From the NCBI GenBank assembly GCA_964653025.1, contig CAZZBZ010000006.1, positions 6,292-70,291 on the forward strand: a DNA stretch of 64,000 nucleotides, in the 5' to 3' direction. This DNA is from an uncultured Verrucomicrobiota bacterium. GTDB taxonomy: Bacteria; Verrucomicrobiota; Verrucomicrobiia; JABWAM01. Of this stretch, positions 4,258-58,684 are shown one piece after another (position 1 is the stretch's first letter; every line of letters starts with the position of its first letter). The position numbers and the translations under genes were made by a program. Under the pieces are notes generated by a model. The model saw nothing but the letters and a program-made list of their open reading frames with translations. It made no database searches and had not been told where the DNA came from.

Positions 4258-5172
4258 ATGAAACCCTCCCTTCGTCCTCTCCTTCAGTTGGCCCTTTGTG
4301 CGGCCGTGGGTCTGGTCTTTGCCTCCCCCGCGACGGCGGCTTCAAAGAAGAAGAAGAAGGCCACCGAGGAGGTTTCCTGGGAGGTGTCCTCCGATGCTTC
4401 CTACGTGGCGGGGAGTCAGACGAAGGCCGGAGATGTGAAGTTCGGTCGATTCACCGAGGTGGCGAACTCTTTTCAAGCGGTCGCCTCCACCCACCTCACC
4501 GAGGGGGTCATCCTTCGCATGGGTGGTGCGTGGGATCGGTATTCGTTCGGCACCCCCGCCAATTCCCCGCTCCCCAACACGCTCCAGTCCGGATCGGCGG
4601 TGATGGGGGTGGACTTCCAGGTGGCCAGCGAGTGGCTGGTCCGCTTCGAGGTGCAGCCCGGCGTTTACAGCGATTTCGCGGACATCACGTTCGACGATGT
4701 CAATGTGCCGGCGACGTTCGGGGCCTCCTACCTCTACGACAAGGACCTCCAGATCGTCTTCGGTCTCAGCATCGACCCTCGGCGCGAGATCCCCGTCCTG
4801 CCGGGGGCGGGCATTCGTTGGCAGTTTGCGGACCGCTGGACTCTCAACGCGATCCTGCCGCGTCCACGCCTCGAATGGGCGATGAGTGAGACCCTCACCC
4901 TCACGACAGGCGCGACGCTCAAGGGGGGGTCTTACCGCCTTGCCGACAACTTCGGGGACACTCACAGCCGTCCCGGGATGAACGGGGTGACCGTGGATTT
5001 CTCCGAGGTCCGGGCCTGTCTTGGCGCCGCGTGGAAGCCGCATCCCGCGGTCGAGGTGACCGTCGAGGGCGGTTACATGGTGTGGCGTACCTTCGACGCA
5101 TGGGCCCGGAACGTGAGTTTTCGCGGGGACCCGGCCCCCTACGGGGGGATCTCGGTGACCGCCGGCTTCTGA
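4258..5172 (+). CDS. Putative outer-membrane beta-barrel protein
   Basis: The signal peptide is MKPSLRPLLQLALCAAVGLVFASPATA. The sequence has alternating beta-strand character and ends in a C-terminal Phe (..TAGF), typical of OMP barrels. It contains a (AAG)5 Lys run. The ORF track starts earlier, at 4207. Confidence 0.55.
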   Translation: MKPSLRPLLQLALCAAVGLVFASPATAASKKKKKATEEVSWEVSSDASYVAGSQTKAGDVKFGRFTEVANSFQAVASTHLTEGVILRMGGAWDRYSFGTPANSPLPNTLQSGSAVMGVDFQVASEWLVRFEVQPGVYSDFADITFDDVNVPATFGASYLYDKDLQIVFGLSIDPRREIPVLPGAGIRWQFADRWTLNAILPRPRLEWAMSETLTLTTGATLKGGSYRLADNFGDTHSRPGMNGVTVDFSEVRACLGAAWKPHPAVEVTVEGGYMVWRTFDAWARNVSFRGDPAPYGGISVTAGF

Positions 5173-6912
5173 TTGAAACGCGCGGCCTGGTGGTTCCTGG
5201 CGGCGTTCATCGTCGCCCTCTATCTGGGGTCGAGCGTGGTCCCCGTCCTGTTCGACGAGACGGAAGGGCAGTACGCAGGCGCCGCGAGGGAGATGCTCCA
5301 GCGCGGGGAATGGCTCCTGCCAACCAACAACGGCCTGCCTCGGTTGCAGAAGCCCCCGCTTCTCTACTGGGTGATTCTGCTTTCCTACAAGGCCTTCGGT
5401 GTGAGCGAGTTTGCCGCGCGGTTGCCGAATGCCCTCGCCTGTCTGGCCTGGATCTTCGGCACCGCGCTGGTGGGTCGGTGTGTCAACGGCTGGCGGCTCG
5501 GGGCCTACGCCGCCCTCCTCCTTGCCACCTCGTTCGGTTTTTTCATCTTCGGGCACCTGATCATGCCCGAGCCCTTTCTCGGGGCGTGCGTGACCTTCGC
5601 CTTCTGGTGTCTGCTGTGTGCGCTTCGCACTCCTGAGCGGGAGGCCGCGTGGTTCCGCGGGGCTTGGTTCTTTATGGCCCTGGGCACCCTGCTGAAGGGA
5701 CCTCACGGATTTCTCTACCCGGTGCTCGCCCTGGGGGGGGCGGCGCTGTTTTCGGAGAAGTTCGCGGGATTGTGGCGGCGCTTTTGGAGTTGGCGCCGAG
5801 TCCTGCTCTTCCTCGTGGCCGTGGCGCCCTGGTACCTCGTGATGGAGACCCGGTTTCCGGGATTTCTTCACGAGAACTTCGTCAACGAGCAGGTCGGGCA
5901 TCTCCTCAACGCGCGCTTCCCTCCCGACAGCCGGGCCGTGCCGTCGCTCATCTTCTGGGGTCAGCACCTGCTCTACTTCTTTCCGTGGGCCCTCTTCGTG
6001 CCGGCCGTCGTGTGGGCCTGGCATCGTCCCGAGCCGTGCGAAGAGGCGGGCCACGATGCCGCACGGTTGCTCTGGGCGTGGATCGCGGTGACGGTGGTGA
6101 GCGTCGCCTTCTCGGCGCGGCAGGACTACTACACGATGACCTGCTGGAGCGCGGTGGCGGTGGCCCTGGCGCGCCCATGGGCCCGCGAAGAGGCCGTCCC
6201 TCGGCGCTACTGGGTGGTTCCATGCGTGCTCATGATGCTGGCCGGTCTCGTGGGCGTGGCCTTGTGGCCCCGCATTGATTTCCTGATGGCCGAATCCACC
6301 TTCGAGGTGGACCCCGTTGCCGAGCGCGACACGCTCTGGAACGCGCTCCACGGTTCCACGTTCGGCGGCTGGAGCGAGTTCGTCCCGCTGATGAAGGCGG
6401 CGGGGCTGATCCTCCTCGCAGGGGGCGCCGTATCGGTCTTTCTCGCATGGAAGAAGCGGGCCGCCCTGGCTGCCCGCGCGGTGGCGCTCGTCATGCTGGG
6501 GCTGCTTGTGCTTGCGGCGCGTGGGCTCGCGCTGAAGGGGGAGTACTATTCGCTTGCCGGGGCCGTTGCCGGCATCAAGGCCGCCGCCGAACCCGGGGCC
6601 ATGGTGGTCTACGATGGAGAACCCCATCTTGCCGCGAGCCTTTTCTTTTACCTGGACCGCCCCGCCTCCTGGGTAAATGCCACGCCGGCCGTTGAGTTTG
6701 CCGTGCGCTACTTTGGGATCGGCGCGGAGGCCTTCCTGGAGCGCGCCACCTTTCAGAGGGCGTGGGGCTCTTCTCGCCAGGTCTTCCTGATCACCGAGAA
6801 GGCGGGCCTCGCGGGTTGGGCGAGCGATCTTGGCCTCGACAAACGCCAACTCACGCCGGTGGGAACCAGCGGCACGCGCGTGGCGATTGCGAACCGACCG
6901 GCGCGGCGGTGA
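5173..6912 (+). CDS. GT-C family membrane glycosyltransferase (ArnT/PMT-like, GT39/GT83)
   Basis: The polytopic membrane protein has the N-terminal GT-C signature DETEGQYAGAAREMLQRGEWLLP. This compares with DEGRYAEIAREML..GDWLVP in ArnT. It uses a TTG start in the ORF track. It contains an in-frame G8 tract at 5733..5740. Confidence 0.8.
   Translation: MKRAAWWFLAAFIVALYLGSSVVPVLFDETEGQYAGAAREMLQRGEWLLPTNNGLPRLQKPPLLYWVILLSYKAFGVSEFAARLPNALACLAWIFGTALVGRCVNGWRLGAYAALLLATSFGFFIFGHLIMPEPFLGACVTFAFWCLLCALRTPEREAAWFRGAWFFMALGTLLKGPHGFLYPVLALGGAALFSEKFAGLWRRFWSWRRVLLFLVAVAPWYLVMETRFPGFLHENFVNEQVGHLLNARFPPDSRAVPSLIFWGQHLLYFFPWALFVPAVVWAWHRPEPCEEAGHDAARLLWAWIAVTVVSVAFSARQDYYTMTCWSAVAVALARPWAREEAVPRRYWVVPCVLMMLAGLVGVALWPRIDFLMAESTFEVDPVAERDTLWNALHGSTFGGWSEFVPLMKAAGLILLAGGAVSVFLAWKKRAALAARAVALVMLGLLVLAARGLALKGEYYSLAGAVAGIKAAAEPGAMVVYDGEPHLAASLFFYLDRPASWVNATPAVEFAVRYFGIGAEAFLERATFQRAWGSSRQVFLITEKAGLAGWASDLGLDKRQLTPVGTSGTRVAIANRPARR
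5733..5740. repeat. Homopolymeric G8 inside the ArnT-like CDS 5173..6912
   Basis: Eight consecutive G residues are read directly. They encode LGGA. Confidence 0.9.
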
Positions 6913-33596: not shown

Positions 33597-34265
33597 TCAA
33601 CGGCCTGCTTTCGAGGGTTTCGCTTTGCTGGCGGAGGGAGCGGGCTTCGGCGGCGGTACGGTTGGTGCCTCGAAGGGGTCTGCCGCCTGGACCTGCACGA
33701 GCACGGAGGCCGCGGCTTTCAATAGGGCATCCTCCCCGCGGAGGGTGTGATGCGTCCGCTTCTCCCTCCGAGCAATCGTCTGTACGCGAGCCGTTCCTCG
33801 ACTCTCGTCCACGTACCGGGCTGTCTCGATGCGTGTGGAGAACTCCCGTACCTCCAGCGAGGCCATGCTGCCGTAGCCGGAGAGCAGGCGATCGTGGAGG
33901 CTGCGAAGGTTCGTGGGGCCTTCCGGGCTTCGGACACAGTTCACGCTGGCGATGTCCACGTCGACCATCGAGAGGTAAAACCGCCCACGCAGGAGCGCCC
34001 AAGGGTCGTAGCGGACGGAAAGAGAACGAATTCCCAGAGCCATCGGGGTGCGGCAACTGTACGGGGAATTATTAATTGAGATGGCACAAGCATTGACGAG
34101 CGACGAGGAGAGGCGCAGATCCACCGACCCCACGGCACACGGGAGTCCGGTCACCCGTTCGAGTTCGCCCCGCAGGAGTCGTGCGCCAATCCAGTTACGC
34201 CCCAGTACCAGTCCGATGAGGACGAGCACCAACAGGAAAAAGATTCGAAACAGCCAGCGAAACAT
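33597..34265 (-). CDS. Hypothetical membrane-anchored protein (AsmA N-terminal-like)
   Basis: MFRWLFRIFFLLVLVLIGLVLG is an N-terminal TM helix (ATG 34265). The remainder is soluble with an Ala/Pro/Lys tail. Confidence 0.5.
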   Translation of the reverse strand: MFRWLFRIFFLLVLVLIGLVLGRNWIGARLLRGELERVTGLPCAVGSVDLRLSSSLVNACAISINNSPYSCRTPMALGIRSLSVRYDPWALLRGRFYLSMVDVDIASVNCVRSPEGPTNLRSLHDRLLSGYGSMASLEVREFSTRIETARYVDESRGTARVQTIARREKRTHHTLRGEDALLKAAASVLVQVQAADPFEAPTVPPPKPAPSASKAKPSKAGR

Positions 34266-34326
34266 GGGGATTCGGGAGTTGCGGGATGATTCGACGGAGA
34301 AAACGTGATGCCAAGCCAAATGTGGA

Positions 34327-34355
34327 CTCCCCCTCGCAATGGGGAGATCCTTTTT
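34327..34355 (+). terminator. Intrinsic-terminator-like hairpin plus T5 on the + strand, with no upstream + strand gene
   Basis: CTCCCC-ctcgcaat-GGGGAG is followed by ATCCTTTTTCGC. It lies in the divergent region between minus-strand gene 33597..34265 and the SDR operon. Confidence 0.4.
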
Positions 34356-34367
34356 CGCAACTACTCA

Positions 34368-34454
34368 GGTTCACGGTTCAGAGGTTCAACGGTTCACGGT
34401 CGGGAATCTCGTTAGAAAATGATCGGCAACCGTTGAACCGTGAACCGTTGAACC
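34368..34454. promoter_or_regulatory. Array of TTCA(A)CGG repeats arranged as an extended inverted repeat
   Basis: The left arm is GGTTCACGGTTCAGAGGTTCAACGGTTCACGG (34368..34399). After a 30-nt spacer, the right arm is CCGTTGAACCGTGAACCGTTGAACC (34430..34454), the reverse complement of the same unit. It lies about 65 nt upstream of the SDR/CoA-transferase/thiolase operon. A related copy is at 40449..40517. Confidence 0.6.
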
Positions 34455-34518
34455 CAACAACCCGAGCAGTTACCCTTTTTCGTTGAAAAGGGTCCGCTCG
34501 GAGGGCGACACTTCTTCC

Positions 34519-35280
34519 ATGTCTATTTCGATTGATCTCACCGGAAAGACAGTGCTCGTCACCGGCGCCTCGCAGGGCATCGGGGCGCAGATCGCGCGCA
34601 CCTTCCACCGCGCCGGCGCCGCGGTGGTCCTGAACCACCCCGGTCTTGAGGGCCCGCGCGCCGATGCCACCCGCCTCGCCGAGGAACTCAACGCCGCGCG
34701 TCCCGGAAGCGCCGAAGAGGCTGCCGCCGACATTTCGGATGCAGGGGCCGTTCGCGCGATGATGGAATCCCTCCGCGCCCGGCGGGGAGGGATCGACTTC
34801 CTCGTCAACAACGCCGCGATCATTCGCGACCGGACCATCGCGAAGATGTCCCTTGAGGATTGGGGTGCCGTGGTCGGGGTAAACCTTTCCGGGGTTTTCC
34901 ACTGCTGCAAGTATGGGCTGGAGATCATGCGCGACGGCGGCGCCATCGTGAGCCTTGGGAGCATCGCCGCCCTCCAGGGGTTCTACGGACAGGCCAACTA
35001 CGCCGCCGCCAAGGCCGGCGTGCAGGCGATGATGCGCGTCCTCAGTCGCGAGTGCGCCCGTCGGGGCATTCGCGTGAATGCCATTGCCCCCGGGGTCGTC
35101 GAAACAGCCATGGCCGCCACCATCCCTGCGGAGGTGCGCGCCGAGATGCTCAAGAACGTCCCGCTGCGCCGCTTCGGCGACCCGTCGGAAATCGCGAATG
35201 TCGCCCTGTTCCTCTGCTCTCCGCTGGCGTCCTACGTCACGGGGCAGACGATCGAGGTCAATGGAGGTTGGCGCGGGTGA
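34519..35280 (+). CDS. SDR-family oxidoreductase (3-oxoacyl/3-hydroxyacyl reductase-like)
   Basis: The glycine motif TGASQGIG is present. The NNAAI block is present. The catalytic YxxxK is in YAAAK. Confidence 0.85.
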
Positions 35281-38007: not shown

Positions 38008-38047
38008 AAATCCGGATTTGACCGCGGGGTGCCAGCATCTCTAATAT
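38008..38047 (+). promoter_or_regulatory. Putative sigma-70-type promoter of gap with an overlapping 12-bp palindrome
   Basis: TTGACC (38018..38023) is separated by 18 nt from TAATAT (38042..38047). The perfect palindrome AAATCCGGATTT (38008..38019) overlaps the -35 element. The gene start at 38086 is about 38 nt downstream. Confidence 0.4.
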
Positions 38048-38049
38048 GA

Positions 38050-39126
<1,077 letters not shown>

Positions 39127-40448: not shown

Positions 40449-40517
40449 AGTTCACGCTCCGGGGGCTCAACGGCTGGCGAAAAGCTTCTCGATCCCCAAA
40501 CCGTGAACCGCTGAACC
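40449..40517. promoter_or_regulatory. Second copy of the TTCACG / TCAACGG ... CCGTGAACCGCTGAACC palindromic repeat element
   Basis: GTTCACG (40449..40455), CTCAACGG (40466..40473) and, after a spacer, CCGTGAACCGCTGAACC (40501..40517). This has the same architecture as 34368..34454. It lies between pgk and tpiA. Confidence 0.55.
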
Positions 40518-55238: not shown

Positions 55239-56963
55239 TTGACCCCCGGTTCGCCCCAGCGCGGGAGAATCGTGGGGGTGTGGTTTCCCCTCGCCATCCT
55301 CGTGGCGGTGTGGATGGCCGCCGCGTGGTGGGCGCGGCGCGAGTGCCTGCCGTACGACGTCAACAACACCGACGTCGGAACTTATCTTTTCCAGGCCGAG
55401 ACCTTCGCTGCCGGGCAACTCGCACGCCCGACGCCCGAGCCGCGTGAGTTTTTCTCGCAGTGGCAGGCAATCGTCCGGGATTGTTCCTTTGCCTACTACC
55501 CGCCGCTGCCGGCGGTCGCCATGGCATTGCCGATTGCGTTCGGCGGGTCGCCCTTCTGGGTTCCTTGGCTCTCGTCGGGTTTGGTGCTGGTCCTGACCTT
55601 CATCTGGATCAGGCGCCTTGCAGGGAAACGCGCCGCGTGGTTCGGGACGCTTGTTCTTGCGGTCTCGCCCTTCTTCGTCGCCAACGGCCTTTCAGTCCTC
55701 TCGCATGCGTTCACCCTGCTCCTGACCGTCGCGTTTCTCGTGGCCGTGGAACGCTGGCGGGCGATGGGATCTCGCGGGTGGGCGGCGGCAGCGGGAACGC
55801 TTCTCGCGGCGGTCTTCGCCTCGCGCCCCGTGAACGCCCTCGCGCTCGGGATCGCGTGGGTGCCATGGGCCGTCGCATCGACAATTGCCAACTGCCAATT
55901 GCCAACTGAAGAACGGAAACGGCAAGGCTTTATGGGGGTCGCGGGTTTTGCGGTTGGGTTTGCGGCGCTGTTCGTGCCGCTGGCGCTCTACTACCACGAG
56001 ATGGCAGGGCGGTGGACGCTCAGCCTGTTCACGGACTACTGGCCGAGGAACCGGTTCGGCTTTGGGCAAGGACTGGGGCGTGGGGAGACGGGACACTACT
56101 TCCAGACTTTTACGGATCACGATTTTTTTGGATTTCTTGGGAATCTGCGGTACAGCGCGGAAGGACTGGCGACCTGGTGGACGGGAAACGCATGGCTTTC
56201 GGCGGCGCTGCTCGGACTTGTGGGAATCCTCCTCGTTCTCCGTATCAAGAATCGGATTTCATCAATTGGCAGTCGGCAGTTGGCAGTTGGAAATGTTGGG
56301 TGGCCTCTGCTGGTGTGGCCTGCGGCGCATGTCTTCCTCTACGCGGGCTACTTCACCCCGAGCACTCCGACGACGGGGCCGCGCTACCTCGCCGAGCTCA
56401 TGCCGGCGCTTGCGCTCGCCACGGGGTGGGGCATGGCTCGCCTGGCGACCGGGGGTGTGGCAAGGCGGCGTCTCGCGCTCCTGCTTTTCTCGGTTGCGAT
56501 GGTCGTGTCGGCTCAGGCCGTGGTGAGGTTCCTTCGGCTCAATCAACTCGGTATCCCGGCCCGACGGGCGGTGGAGCATGGTGTTGTCGGGGAAGCGCGG
56601 GCGCCGGCGGTGGTCTTCCTGCGTTCCTTCTGGATCGGCCATCCGCTCCCGATCTTTCGGAATCTTCCCAGCCTCTCGGGTCCGGTGATCTTCGCATGCG
56701 ACCGAGGGGCGGAAGATCGACGGTTGGTGGAACGGCACCCCGACCGCAACGCCTATGTCCTCGCGCTGTTCCCCGAAGGGCGCGGGGTGCGGACGGAGAT
56801 GGTGCCTGTTTATCGGGCGAACGACCGCCGGTGGCTCCGTGCGCCTGAGTCGGTGGAAGCTCCCTTCTTTGTCGGGAGCCGCTTCACTCCTTCGCTGCGG
56901 CTGGAGGGGGAGGCGGCGAGGAAGCTCTTTTACCCGCAGCCGGACGAGATCGAGGGACAGTGA
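55239..56963 (+). CDS. Polytopic membrane protein, GT-C glycosyltransferase-like
   Basis: It has about 12 TM helices. The N-terminal periplasmic-loop motif NNTDVGTYLFQAETFAAGQL has the GT-C D-x-G-x-Y pattern. It carries two inverted 4x heptamer arrays in frame. Confidence 0.6.
   Translation: MTPGSPQRGRIVGVWFPLAILVAVWMAAAWWARRECLPYDVNNTDVGTYLFQAETFAAGQLARPTPEPREFFSQWQAIVRDCSFAYYPPLPAVAMALPIAFGGSPFWVPWLSSGLVLVLTFIWIRRLAGKRAAWFGTLVLAVSPFFVANGLSVLSHAFTLLLTVAFLVAVERWRAMGSRGWAAAAGTLLAAVFASRPVNALALGIAWVPWAVASTIANCQLPTEERKRQGFMGVAGFAVGFAALFVPLALYYHEMAGRWTLSLFTDYWPRNRFGFGQGLGRGETGHYFQTFTDHDFFGFLGNLRYSAEGLATWWTGNAWLSAALLGLVGILLVLRIKNRISSIGSRQLAVGNVGWPLLVWPAAHVFLYAGYFTPSTPTTGPRYLAELMPALALATGWGMARLATGGVARRRLALLLFSVAMVVSAQAVVRFLRLNQLGIPARRAVEHGVVGEARAPAVVFLRSFWIGHPLPIFRNLPSLSGPVIFACDRGAEDRRLVERHPDRNAYVLALFPEGRGVRTEMVPVYRANDRRWLRAPESVEAPFFVGSRFTPSLRLEGEAARKLFYPQPDEIEGQ
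55883..55908. repeat. Tandem heptamer array (AAYTGCC)x3.7 inside CDS 55239..56963
   Basis: The sequence is aattgcc aactgcc aattgcc aactg. Confidence 0.8.
56264..56291. repeat. Inverted copy of the heptamer array (caattgg cagtcgg cagttgg cagttgg)
   Basis: The reverse complement is ccaactg ccaactg ccgactg ccaattg, which is the same AAYTGCC unit family as 55883..55908. The two arrays form an imperfect 26-bp inverted repeat (about 4 mismatches) separated by 355 bp. Both are in frame in the CDS. Confidence 0.8.
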
Positions 56964-57916: not shown

Positions 57917-58684
57917 TCAAGGGAGGGTGGTCTGCCAGTCGGCGTTCTTGTCGTACCAGTAGGTCATCTGGTTGGTTTCGTAGTGGTTGAAGGCGGCGAC
58001 GTGGCCGTCGGCGAAGAGGAAGTTGGCCGCGCCGTTGTGGGGAAGCGGGTAGGTGGAGCCGTTATGGGAGAAGCCGGTGCGATCAGTGACCTCGTTGGTG
58101 GGATCGAAGTCCTGGTCGTTGCGGTCTGTGGAGAGATCTTCGCTCATGAGGATGAACGCGGGTGGGTTGCTGATGCGGCGGGCGTCGAGGACGAATGCGC
58201 CGGTCTTCGATCCGCCGCCGACTCCGGGATCACCCCCGCCTTCCTTGTAGGGCTGGATGAGGTTGAGGTAGTAGTCCACTTGGACCACGGGGGTGACCCA
58301 CTTCGGGAGGCCACGGTCTTGCAGGATGCCGGTATCCTTGAAGTAAGGGTAGAGGAGCCGGGTCCATGACTGCGTGGATCCGGAGGAGTTCCACGCGGGG
58401 GAAGGGAGTCCGCTCTGGGCGACGAGTTGGTTTTCGTTCTCATCCCAGTACATCCGGACCGCGTAGCCGAGCTGCTTGAGATTATTGGCGCACGACATGG
58501 CCTGGGCGCGGTAGCGCGCCTTCGAGAGCGAGGGCATGAGCAGGCCCGCGAGGATGCCGAGGATGGCCACTACGACCAAAAGCTCGATGAGAGTGAAGGC
58601 GGTGAGCGGTGAGCGGTGAGCGGTGAGCAGGCTTGCTCCGTGTTGCGCGAGGAAACGGGGAGTTGGGCGAGACTCAAACATCAT
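57917..58684 (-). CDS. Prepilin-type N-terminal cleavage/methylation domain protein, H-X9-DG (DUF1559) family
   Basis: ...[28 protein letters not shown] is the pilin-like N-terminus, preceded by a 26-aa leader. The C-terminus [17 protein letters not shown] is an exact H-X9-DG motif. A 4x GGTGAGC heptamer array lies in the leader-coding region. The gene overlaps the upstream GT-C gene by 4 nt (ATGA). Confidence 0.8.
58601..58628. repeat. Perfect tandem heptamer (GGTGAGC)x4 in the 5' coding region of the pilin-like gene
   Basis: The sequence ggtgagcggtgagcggtgagcggtgagc is read directly. On the coding strand it encodes [11 protein letters not shown] in the leader peptide. The 7-nt unit is not a multiple of 3. 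Confidence 0.9.

Follow-up and report, generated by a model that had tools for sequence, protein, structure and literature searches.

The window analysed here, by which we mean the whole 64-kb stretch of DNA, matches a contig of MAG GCA_049318025.1 at 99.8% identity, and the best named hits of its proteins are to 'Verrucomicrobiae bacterium'. Within it, a 254-bp divergent intergenic region separates a membrane gene from an SDR gene, which is followed in order by genes for a FadX-like CoA-transferase (GTG start at 35277) and a thiolase, and by gap, pgk, tpiA and secG. An 87-bp inverted repeat built from GGTTCA units (34368-34454, hereafter the main copy) lies inside this intergenic region, and a second copy lies between pgk and tpiA; there are no further GGTTCA arrays in the window. 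The features of the two sites are as follows.

33597-34265, minus strand: membrane gene, left of the main copy (DUF748 in a relative).
34286-34314, minus strand: predicted sigma-70-like promoter of the divergent membrane gene (TTGGCA-17-AATCAT), left of the hairpin and outside the repeat.
34368-34400, no strand assigned: left (5') arm of the main copy, with four GGTTCA units at periods of 7, 8 and 8 nt, then a partial unit, GGT.
34401-34427, no strand assigned: spacer or loop of the main copy, in which the predicted fold has a short inner stem.
34428-34454, no strand assigned: right (3') arm of the main copy, AACCGT and then three TGAACC units, pairing with the left arm.
34483-34519, plus strand: candidate SDR promoter, a conserved TTGAA(A/C)-N18-GACACT-N6-ATG block outside the repeat, proposed from alignment.
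34519-35280, plus strand: SDR gene, right of the main copy.
40449-40473, no strand assigned: left arm of the second copy, degenerate (GTTCACGCTCC...GGCTCAACGG), beginning 13 nt past the pgk stop codon (40436).
40498-40517, no strand assigned: right arm of the second copy, AAACCG TGAACC GC TGAACC, ending 42 nt before the tpiA ATG (40560).

Analysis of putative promoter elements by alignment revealed that the TTGAA(A/C)-N18-GACACT-N6-ATG block is the sole part of the SDR intergenic region common to relatives. This suggests a candidate promoter of a leaderless SDR-operon transcript, whose TTGAAC box resembles a single repeat unit. A perfect small hairpin, ACCCTTTT-TCGTTG-AAAAGGGT (34472-34519), overlaps the same block. 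The stop codon of the SDR gene and the start codon of the CoA-transferase gene overlap as GTGA (35277-35280), and this suggests that translation of the two genes may be coupled. Further downstream, gap has a sigma-70-like promoter of its own, TTGACC-N18-TAATAT at 38018-38047, whose boxes and spacing are identical in the relative L233. Since this promoter is conserved, gap, pgk and tpiA are probably transcribed separately from the SDR, CoA-transferase and thiolase genes. The main copy probably lies between two likely -35 boxes and outside both divergent transcripts, a placement that depends on promoter calls made from consensus matches and alignment.

The original prediction had also pointed to a GTTCACC heptamer just upstream of gap. 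The heptamer is present (38052-38058), but it is a single one, belongs to no array and is unrelated to the arrays. It sits at about the +1 position, just downstream of the gap promoter, and is conserved in a relative.

The main copy reads GGTTCAC GGTTCAGA GGTTCAAC GGTTCAC GGT, then a 27-nt spacer, then AACCGT TGAACC G TGAACC GT TGAACC. Three direct and three inverse units had been proposed; the three inverted units on the right are there as described, but the left arm contains four GGTTCA units, not three. The two arms show perfect complementarity over their inner 18 nt. The predicted RNA fold has an energy of -48.7 kcal/mol (z = -6.4 against shuffles) and the predicted DNA fold one of -28.1 kcal/mol (z = -6.2 against shuffles). 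In the 64-kb window, GGTTCANNGGTTCA has four matches with at most one mismatch where 0.30 are expected, CCGTGAACCGYTGAACC has three where 0.05 are expected, and none of 100 shuffles gave counts of the two-unit motifs as high as those observed. The palindrome reported upstream of the SDR, CoA-transferase and thiolase genes is thus real, given the z of its RNA fold and motif counts beyond those of all shuffles. An Rfam scan of the window found one tRNA only and no match at the main copy.

A 9-nt direct repeat, CCTTTTTCG, brackets the hairpin at 34349-34357 and 34474-34482, with a spacing of 125 nt. The probability of such a repeat by chance is about 0.1, and the homologous sequence is single-copy in L233. 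It could be either a target duplication or a chance occurrence.

The same architecture had been said to recur at 40449-40517. This was borne out for the right arm, CCGTGAACCGCTGAACC, which is intact there, but the left arm has degenerated, and the predicted fold is no more stable than the folds of shuffled sequences (z = -0.6). The pgk-tpiA copy is most likely a decaying relic of the GGTTCA repeat.

Comparison with relatives showed that both sites are labile. In L233, whose CoA-transferase is 89% identical, the gene order from DUF748 through secG is preserved, and the divergent intergenic region, 105 bp long against 254 bp here, contains no hairpin. At the SDR site of L232 (86%) there is one GGTTCAA...TTGAACC pair, that is, 1 + 1 units. 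The SDR intergenic region of a 98% strain is about 47 bp longer, as judged from gene coordinates only. Between pgk and tpiA, a 98% strain has point changes within units (TGAACC to TGAACT), and a 90% relative has TGAACC units with different spacers. One unit is found at 86% identity and none at 85%, and in a 77% relative the two genes are only 8 bp apart. The array is absent or decayed at this site in L386, L387, L388 and L390. Judged by the sequences compared, the arrays vary in length and sequence between close relatives at orthologous positions.

These comparisons bear on the first of two readings put forward in the original prediction, an operator for central-carbon and acetyl-CoA genes. 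In this reading, the inverted arrays would be cooperative sites for a dimeric or multimeric regulator of the SDR/CoA-transferase/thiolase operon and of tpiA. In its favour, the main copy is situated within a region of divergent promoters, tpiA has a second, partial copy upstream, and in three relatives the -35 element of the candidate SDR promoter is a unit-like TTGAAC box. However, the reading fails because the hairpin is absent from the orthologous promoter of the syntenic L233, because the degenerate pgk-tpiA array decays or is absent in relatives at 98-77% identity, and because in other genomes of many phyla, like arrays adjoin unrelated genes, even within a ribosomal-protein operon, so that the proposed restriction to genes of related function does not hold. 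Moreover, no regulator gene is adjacent to the main copy, and gap is served by the conserved promoter described above. The original prediction had itself named occurrence of the motif regardless of gene function as grounds against an operator, and this is what the other genomes show. We therefore regard a local operator as very improbable.

Our search further revealed that the repeat is widely dispersed. The 18-mer GGTTCARCGGTTCACGGT matched at least 111 stretches in a species-level genome collection, against about 35 expected by chance for the entire collection. The matches listed include MAGs of Verrucomicrobiota, Lentisphaerae, Kiritimatiellia, Desulfobacterota, Planctomycetota, Elusimicrobia, Gemmatimonadota, Spirochaetota and others, with Desulfobacterales, Syntrophaceae/Smithella and Desulfonatronum among the labels. 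Among these listed matches, several assemblies gave four to six contigs apiece, and nearly every match extends to a longer array or a full hairpin. Within the clade of the window, the density is about 4 sites in roughly 170 kb, from which the copy number of the source genome is an extrapolation; the window itself has 2 sites in 64 kb.

Three-unit GGTTCA arrays and full hairpins were also present in IMG/VR contigs. In a phage family with lambda-like head modules (portal, protease, decoration protein and major head protein), GGTTCA elements occur between the genes. Up to four GGTTCA hairpins per 10 kb were seen in the head-module loci L009, L020, L029, L036 and L045 and in related IMG/VR contigs, all from uncultured phages.

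In viral contigs, three-unit arrays were found in 54 and 97 stretches for two control hexamers and in at least 119 for GGTTCA, which means that arrays as such are common. Inverted pairs accounted for 1 of the 54 and 4 of the 97 control stretches, against 13 of 119 for GGTTCA.

Hairpins made of other heptamers also exist, such as those of GGTGTCA in L301. In other genomes, GGTTCA arrays were observed directly beside arrays of CTACAGC, ATTGGAY, CCAATAT, GGTGTCA and other heptamers (L124, about 6560-6650; L170, about 2890-2960; L166, about 2400-2480; L139, about 4790-4830; L030, 331-350 and 3518-3537). Several families of heptamer arrays seem to coexist in each of these genomes. In L190, a Verrucomicrobiia relative, five-unit GGTTCA and TGAACC arms at 6522-6556 and 6829-6863 stand about 270 nt apart and may bracket a larger insert.

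The window contains other heptamer arrays too. An unrelated inverted pair consists of (CAACTGC/CAATTGC) x3.9 at 55882-55908 and its reverse complement, (TTGGCAG) x3.6, at 56266-56290; the two are 358 nt apart and lie inside or across a long ORF (55239-56963, plus strand). A perfect (GCGGTGA) x4.3 array at 58599-58628 is located in the 5' coding leader of a minus-strand gene (57917-58684), and the N terminus of the gene product has a prepilin-type motif. Gain or loss of a single 7-nt unit would put the gene out of frame, so the array could be a phase-variation switch.

The position of the family in its host genomes was determined with genes called from codon log-odds; the caller had been trained on long ORFs free of ambiguity and mostly agrees with an independent gene table for L001. 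Of 369 arms, 334 were non-coding. The median number of units per array was four, and the periods between units were 7 nt in 744 intervals and 8 nt in 492. Called genes were found on both sides of 215 of 264 elements; 190 of these gene pairs were tandem, 13 convergent and 12 divergent, which equals the background mix of gene pairs (1552 tandem, 106 convergent and 114 divergent). The median distance from the upstream stop codon to the start of the GGTTCA arm is 9 nt, and that from the end of the TGAACC arm to the downstream start codon is 27 nt (about 25-27 nt). The usual layout is therefore a stop codon, about 9 nt, the GGTTCA array, a loop, the TGAACC array, about 25 nt and a start codon. Arms that seem to be single occupy the position expected of the matching half of a hairpin.

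Two other readings of the placement were rejected. TGAACC arrays are not 5'-UTR elements pointing at start codons, as they face gene starts and gene ends about equally (109 against 102), and the apparent bias toward starts is explained by the 'single' arms being halves of hairpins. Nor do TTGAAC units generally act as the -35 box of a leaderless gene, since numerous arrays directly adjoin a start codon or are followed by an ordinary ribosome-binding site.

Twenty downstream genes picked at random had unrelated functions. They included genes for ribosomal proteins L2 and L22, PurH, NadA, FliK, UvrD, Skp, a peptide chain release factor with PCRF and RF-1 domains, parts of ABC transporters and a GHMP kinase. 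One ribosomal-protein operon (L161) holds three GGTTCA elements. In these other genomes, the elements have no functional link to their neighbouring genes.

The stable hairpin and its typical start so shortly past a stop codon would suit a transcription terminator or attenuator, possibly a bidirectional one. In addition, T-runs past the outer ends are modestly enriched (13.8% against a background of 7.8%), and some Lentisphaerae copies end in ATGCCC-TTTTTT. Most copies are nevertheless without a U-tract, and copies are found inside a ribosomal-protein operon. As for the main copy, it stands between divergent gene starts with no gene end there, and a terminator scan made no call at it. We consider a terminator or attenuator extremely improbable.

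The sequences of the arms give an indication of how the arrays arise. In the unbiased viral set, adjacent spacers within an arm were identical in 53% of cases, against 17% expected, and in the genome set of 8/7 flavour, two-unit (15-nt) blocks are repeated. Both observations fit local tandem duplication. Spacers at mirrored positions in the two arms were the same in 15% of cases (control, 14%). The fold energy of true arm pairs (-0.620 kcal/mol/nt) is no better than that of chimeric pairs (-0.614 kcal/mol/nt, p = 0.8) and much worse than that of perfect palindromes (-0.93). The two arms are not co-adapted and evolve independently. A perfect hairpin maintained by selection was rejected on the same two comparisons.

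The relative order of the two arms is nearly fixed. At ascertained loci, a GGTTCA arm stood 5' of a TGAACC arm within 80 nt in 53 cases and the reverse order was found in none; direct scans gave 24 sites (21 stretches) in the forward order, against 3 independent sites (5 stretches) in the reverse. The hexamer itself is kept across phyla while the spacers vary. Together, the near-fixed orientation and the cross-phylum conservation hint at something beyond neutral slippage, that is, recognition by some factor.

Copies within some genomes have loops or flanks in common. The CAZKCI copies have the loop GGTTGGCA(A/G)AAATGAAAAACAACC, and Lentisphaerae/Kiritimatiellia copies have the common ends GGCATGGTTCA...TGAACCATGCC. 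Copy-and-paste spread thus seems to occur in some genomes besides local growth.

The second reading of the original prediction was a REP- or MITE-like element, that is, a non-autonomous palindrome copied by a transposase such as RAYT/TnpA-REP or a MITE partner. As a description, it holds in so far as the element is a dispersed, multi-copy, intergenic palindromic repeat. The common loops and flanks just mentioned, the breaking of assemblies at the element and the CCTTTTTCG repeat around the main copy point the same way. However, neither REP head is enriched at the arm flanks (GTAG at 11 and CGTC at 3 of 369, against about 13 expected by chance). In 48 hairpins, there was no sign of target-site duplication, as the longest direct repeat of the flanks, 4.17 nt on average, barely exceeded the control (3.85 +/- 0.15 nt), and no palindrome extension or terminal inverted repeat was found beyond the arrays. 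The loop of the main copy had no second occurrence in a metagenome scan or in BLAST against plasmid and phage records, and the bracketing 9-nt repeat may be fortuitous at the probability given above. Moreover, the arms are independent unit arrays, which evolve in place at an orthologous site. Mobilization by a transposase as the origin of the family appears improbable to us.

Modular arrays of short units are known from other bacteria. Xanthomonas genomes have about 185 intergenic arrays of the heptamer GGGAATC each, typically of about 4 units, and 70-75 of the arrays occur as convergent pairs (Rehm et al. 2015, PMC4692102). Most are found where neighbouring ORFs point the same way and few where the ORFs diverge, and the arrays differ from one sister species to another (PMC4692102). 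The GGTTCA arrays resemble them in their tandem units of about 7 nt, their intergenic location (89-93%), mostly between co-directional ORFs, their convergent pairs capable of forming stem-loops, their variation in length and sequence between relatives, and the lack of a link to gene function. The units differ, being GGGAATC/GGGGAYT with a G-tract in Xanthomonas and GGTTCA plus 1-2 free nt, with mixed periods of 7 and 8 nt, here. Since the GGTTCA unit has no G-tract, no G-quadruplex is possible, unlike in the Xanthomonas arrays. The hosts also differ, as GGTTCA arrays are found in Verrucomicrobiota, Desulfobacterota, other phyla and phage contigs, and the inverted pair is their dominant form.

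The STRR repeats of cyanobacteria are dispersed intergenic tandem heptamers with a few favoured units, usually described as lying in direct arrays rather than in obligatory head-to-head pairs. They differ from the GGTTCA arrays in their units and in phylum. The STRR heptanucleotides, of Calothrix and Nostoc, are cited in the Xanthomonas paper (PMC4692102). Direct repeats of the heptamer TAACTGA, in 2-6 copies, have been described in Beggiatoaceae, cyanobacteria and Bacteroidetes (MacGregor 2015, PMC4679880). Their spread across phyla is patchy, and they lie close upstream of start codons, including those in ribosomal-protein operons, with no functional pattern among the downstream genes (PMC4679880). 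They are almost always direct (one indirect case in 170) and overlap the ribosome-binding site (PMC4679880). GGTTCA arrays are similarly patchy across phyla, likewise occur in ribosomal-protein operons and also have a stop codon within the unit. Unlike TAACTGA repeats, they form head-to-head pairs and stop about 25 nt short of the start codon.

REP elements are single imperfect palindromes of 20-40 bp with a GTAG or CGTC head, not modular arrays of units. REP and BIME elements are multi-copy and extragenic, mostly between co-directional or convergent genes, and are thought to influence mRNA stability, termination and supercoiling. They and the GGTTCA elements are both multi-copy extragenic imperfect palindromes, but the GGTTCA element described here is 87 bp long, built of units and headless. 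REP/BIME elements and their RAYT transposases are the subject of PMC3733652, PMC2817692 and PMC8266576.

A further system is of interest for the way in which heptads can be read. The omega repressor of plasmid pSM19035, a ribbon-helix-helix (RHH) protein, binds contiguous 7-bp heptads, both direct and inverted, in promoter regions. The omega system is plasmid-specific, has a known cognate protein and acts at few promoters; it demonstrates that heptad arrays can be cooperative protein sites on duplex DNA. Contiguous units of about 7 bp are found in both cases, but the GGTTCA arrays are genome-wide and cross-phylum, and no cognate protein was found for them. On the whole, the GGTTCA element fits better with the heptamer arrays of Xanthomonas, cyanobacteria and Beggiatoaceae (PMC4692102, PMC4679880). 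In the searchable literature, we found no description of GGTTCA-based head-to-head arrays across phyla and phage head modules, and the literal motif matched primer sequences only.

It is possible, although we think it unlikely, that each GGTTCA is the binding site of a widespread trans-acting protein, the arrays then forming a genome-wide structural or post-transcriptional network. Putative candidates would be a ribbon-helix-helix or nucleoid-type protein polymerising on 7-bp heptads, or an S1-, Csp- or CsrA-type RNA-binding protein. Such unit-wise recognition would be consistent with a hexamer kept across phyla between free spacers, with arms that are not co-adapted, as they should be in an element that acts by structure only, with the strong preference for the head-to-head order and with the occurrence of single arms without the full hairpin. 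A like proposal was made by MacGregor for the TAACTGA repeats just upstream of start codons (PMC4679880). On the other hand, no candidate protein was found, the mixed 7- and 8-nt periods keep no constant helical phase, the 'single' arms sit exactly at one half of a decayed hairpin, and the point decay at pgk-tpiA between 98% strains looks neutral.

A broader form of the idea, which we hold to be rather doubtful, is that the arrays are the cis-sites of a trans-acting factor spread by horizontal transfer, which could be a hexamer-reading protein or an enzyme that generates the arrays. If this is true, the factor would be common to PVC bacteria, Desulfobacterota, other anaerobe-rich phyla and phages. 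It would explain why the hexamer is conserved while the spacers drift, as well as the head-to-head order and the fixed distances to stop and start codons. It would then amount to a cross-phylum system of intercistronic control or of genome structuring.

The explanation that we prefer, and that we consider probable, is that the main copy is one copy of a dispersed, fast-evolving intergenic GGTTCA repeat, with the pgk-tpiA site as a decayed relic, and is not a gene-specific switch. The repeat unit is 7-8 nt long with the core GGTTCA, arranged as head-to-head arrays of the form (GGTTCA-N1-2)n, loop, (N1-2-TGAACC)n. We infer that each arm grows and shrinks alone, through tandem duplication of one- or two-unit blocks and slipped-strand events. 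Such arm-wise slippage would let an element appear, change and decay at a given intergenic site in closely related lineages. A single strand is predicted to fold into a long imperfect hairpin. Between co-directional genes, the element would be co-transcribed, and if it is active, its most plausible role would be that of an intercistronic hairpin affecting the 3' ends or the processing of mRNA.

The main copy itself is probably not transcribed, and since it lies between predicted divergent promoters, it may be read as a largely neutral insertion or expansion. At most, it would have a structural effect on both promoters, through cruciform formation or spacing. Most likely, it represents an expansion particular to its lineage and has hardly any gene-specific function, if any.

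For the annotation of this window, our analysis does away with an attractive but false regulatory connection of the acetyl-CoA operon to the glycolytic genes, and it indicates likelier promoters, namely the TTGAA(A/C) box before the SDR gene and TTGACC-N18-TAATAT before gap. The arrays also matter for the quality of MAGs, as they break short-read assemblies. In L235 1-28, a Logan assembly of SRR12261224 from the same species, a short-read contig starts exactly within the right arm, and the GGTTCA element there acts as an assembly breakpoint. Over-represented intergenic heptamer arrays have been noted since 2007 and are still without explanation. With their strict arrangement and conserved hexamer, the GGTTCA arrays offer a tractable case for asking whether such arrays arise as by-products of mutation or serve as sites for a common factor.
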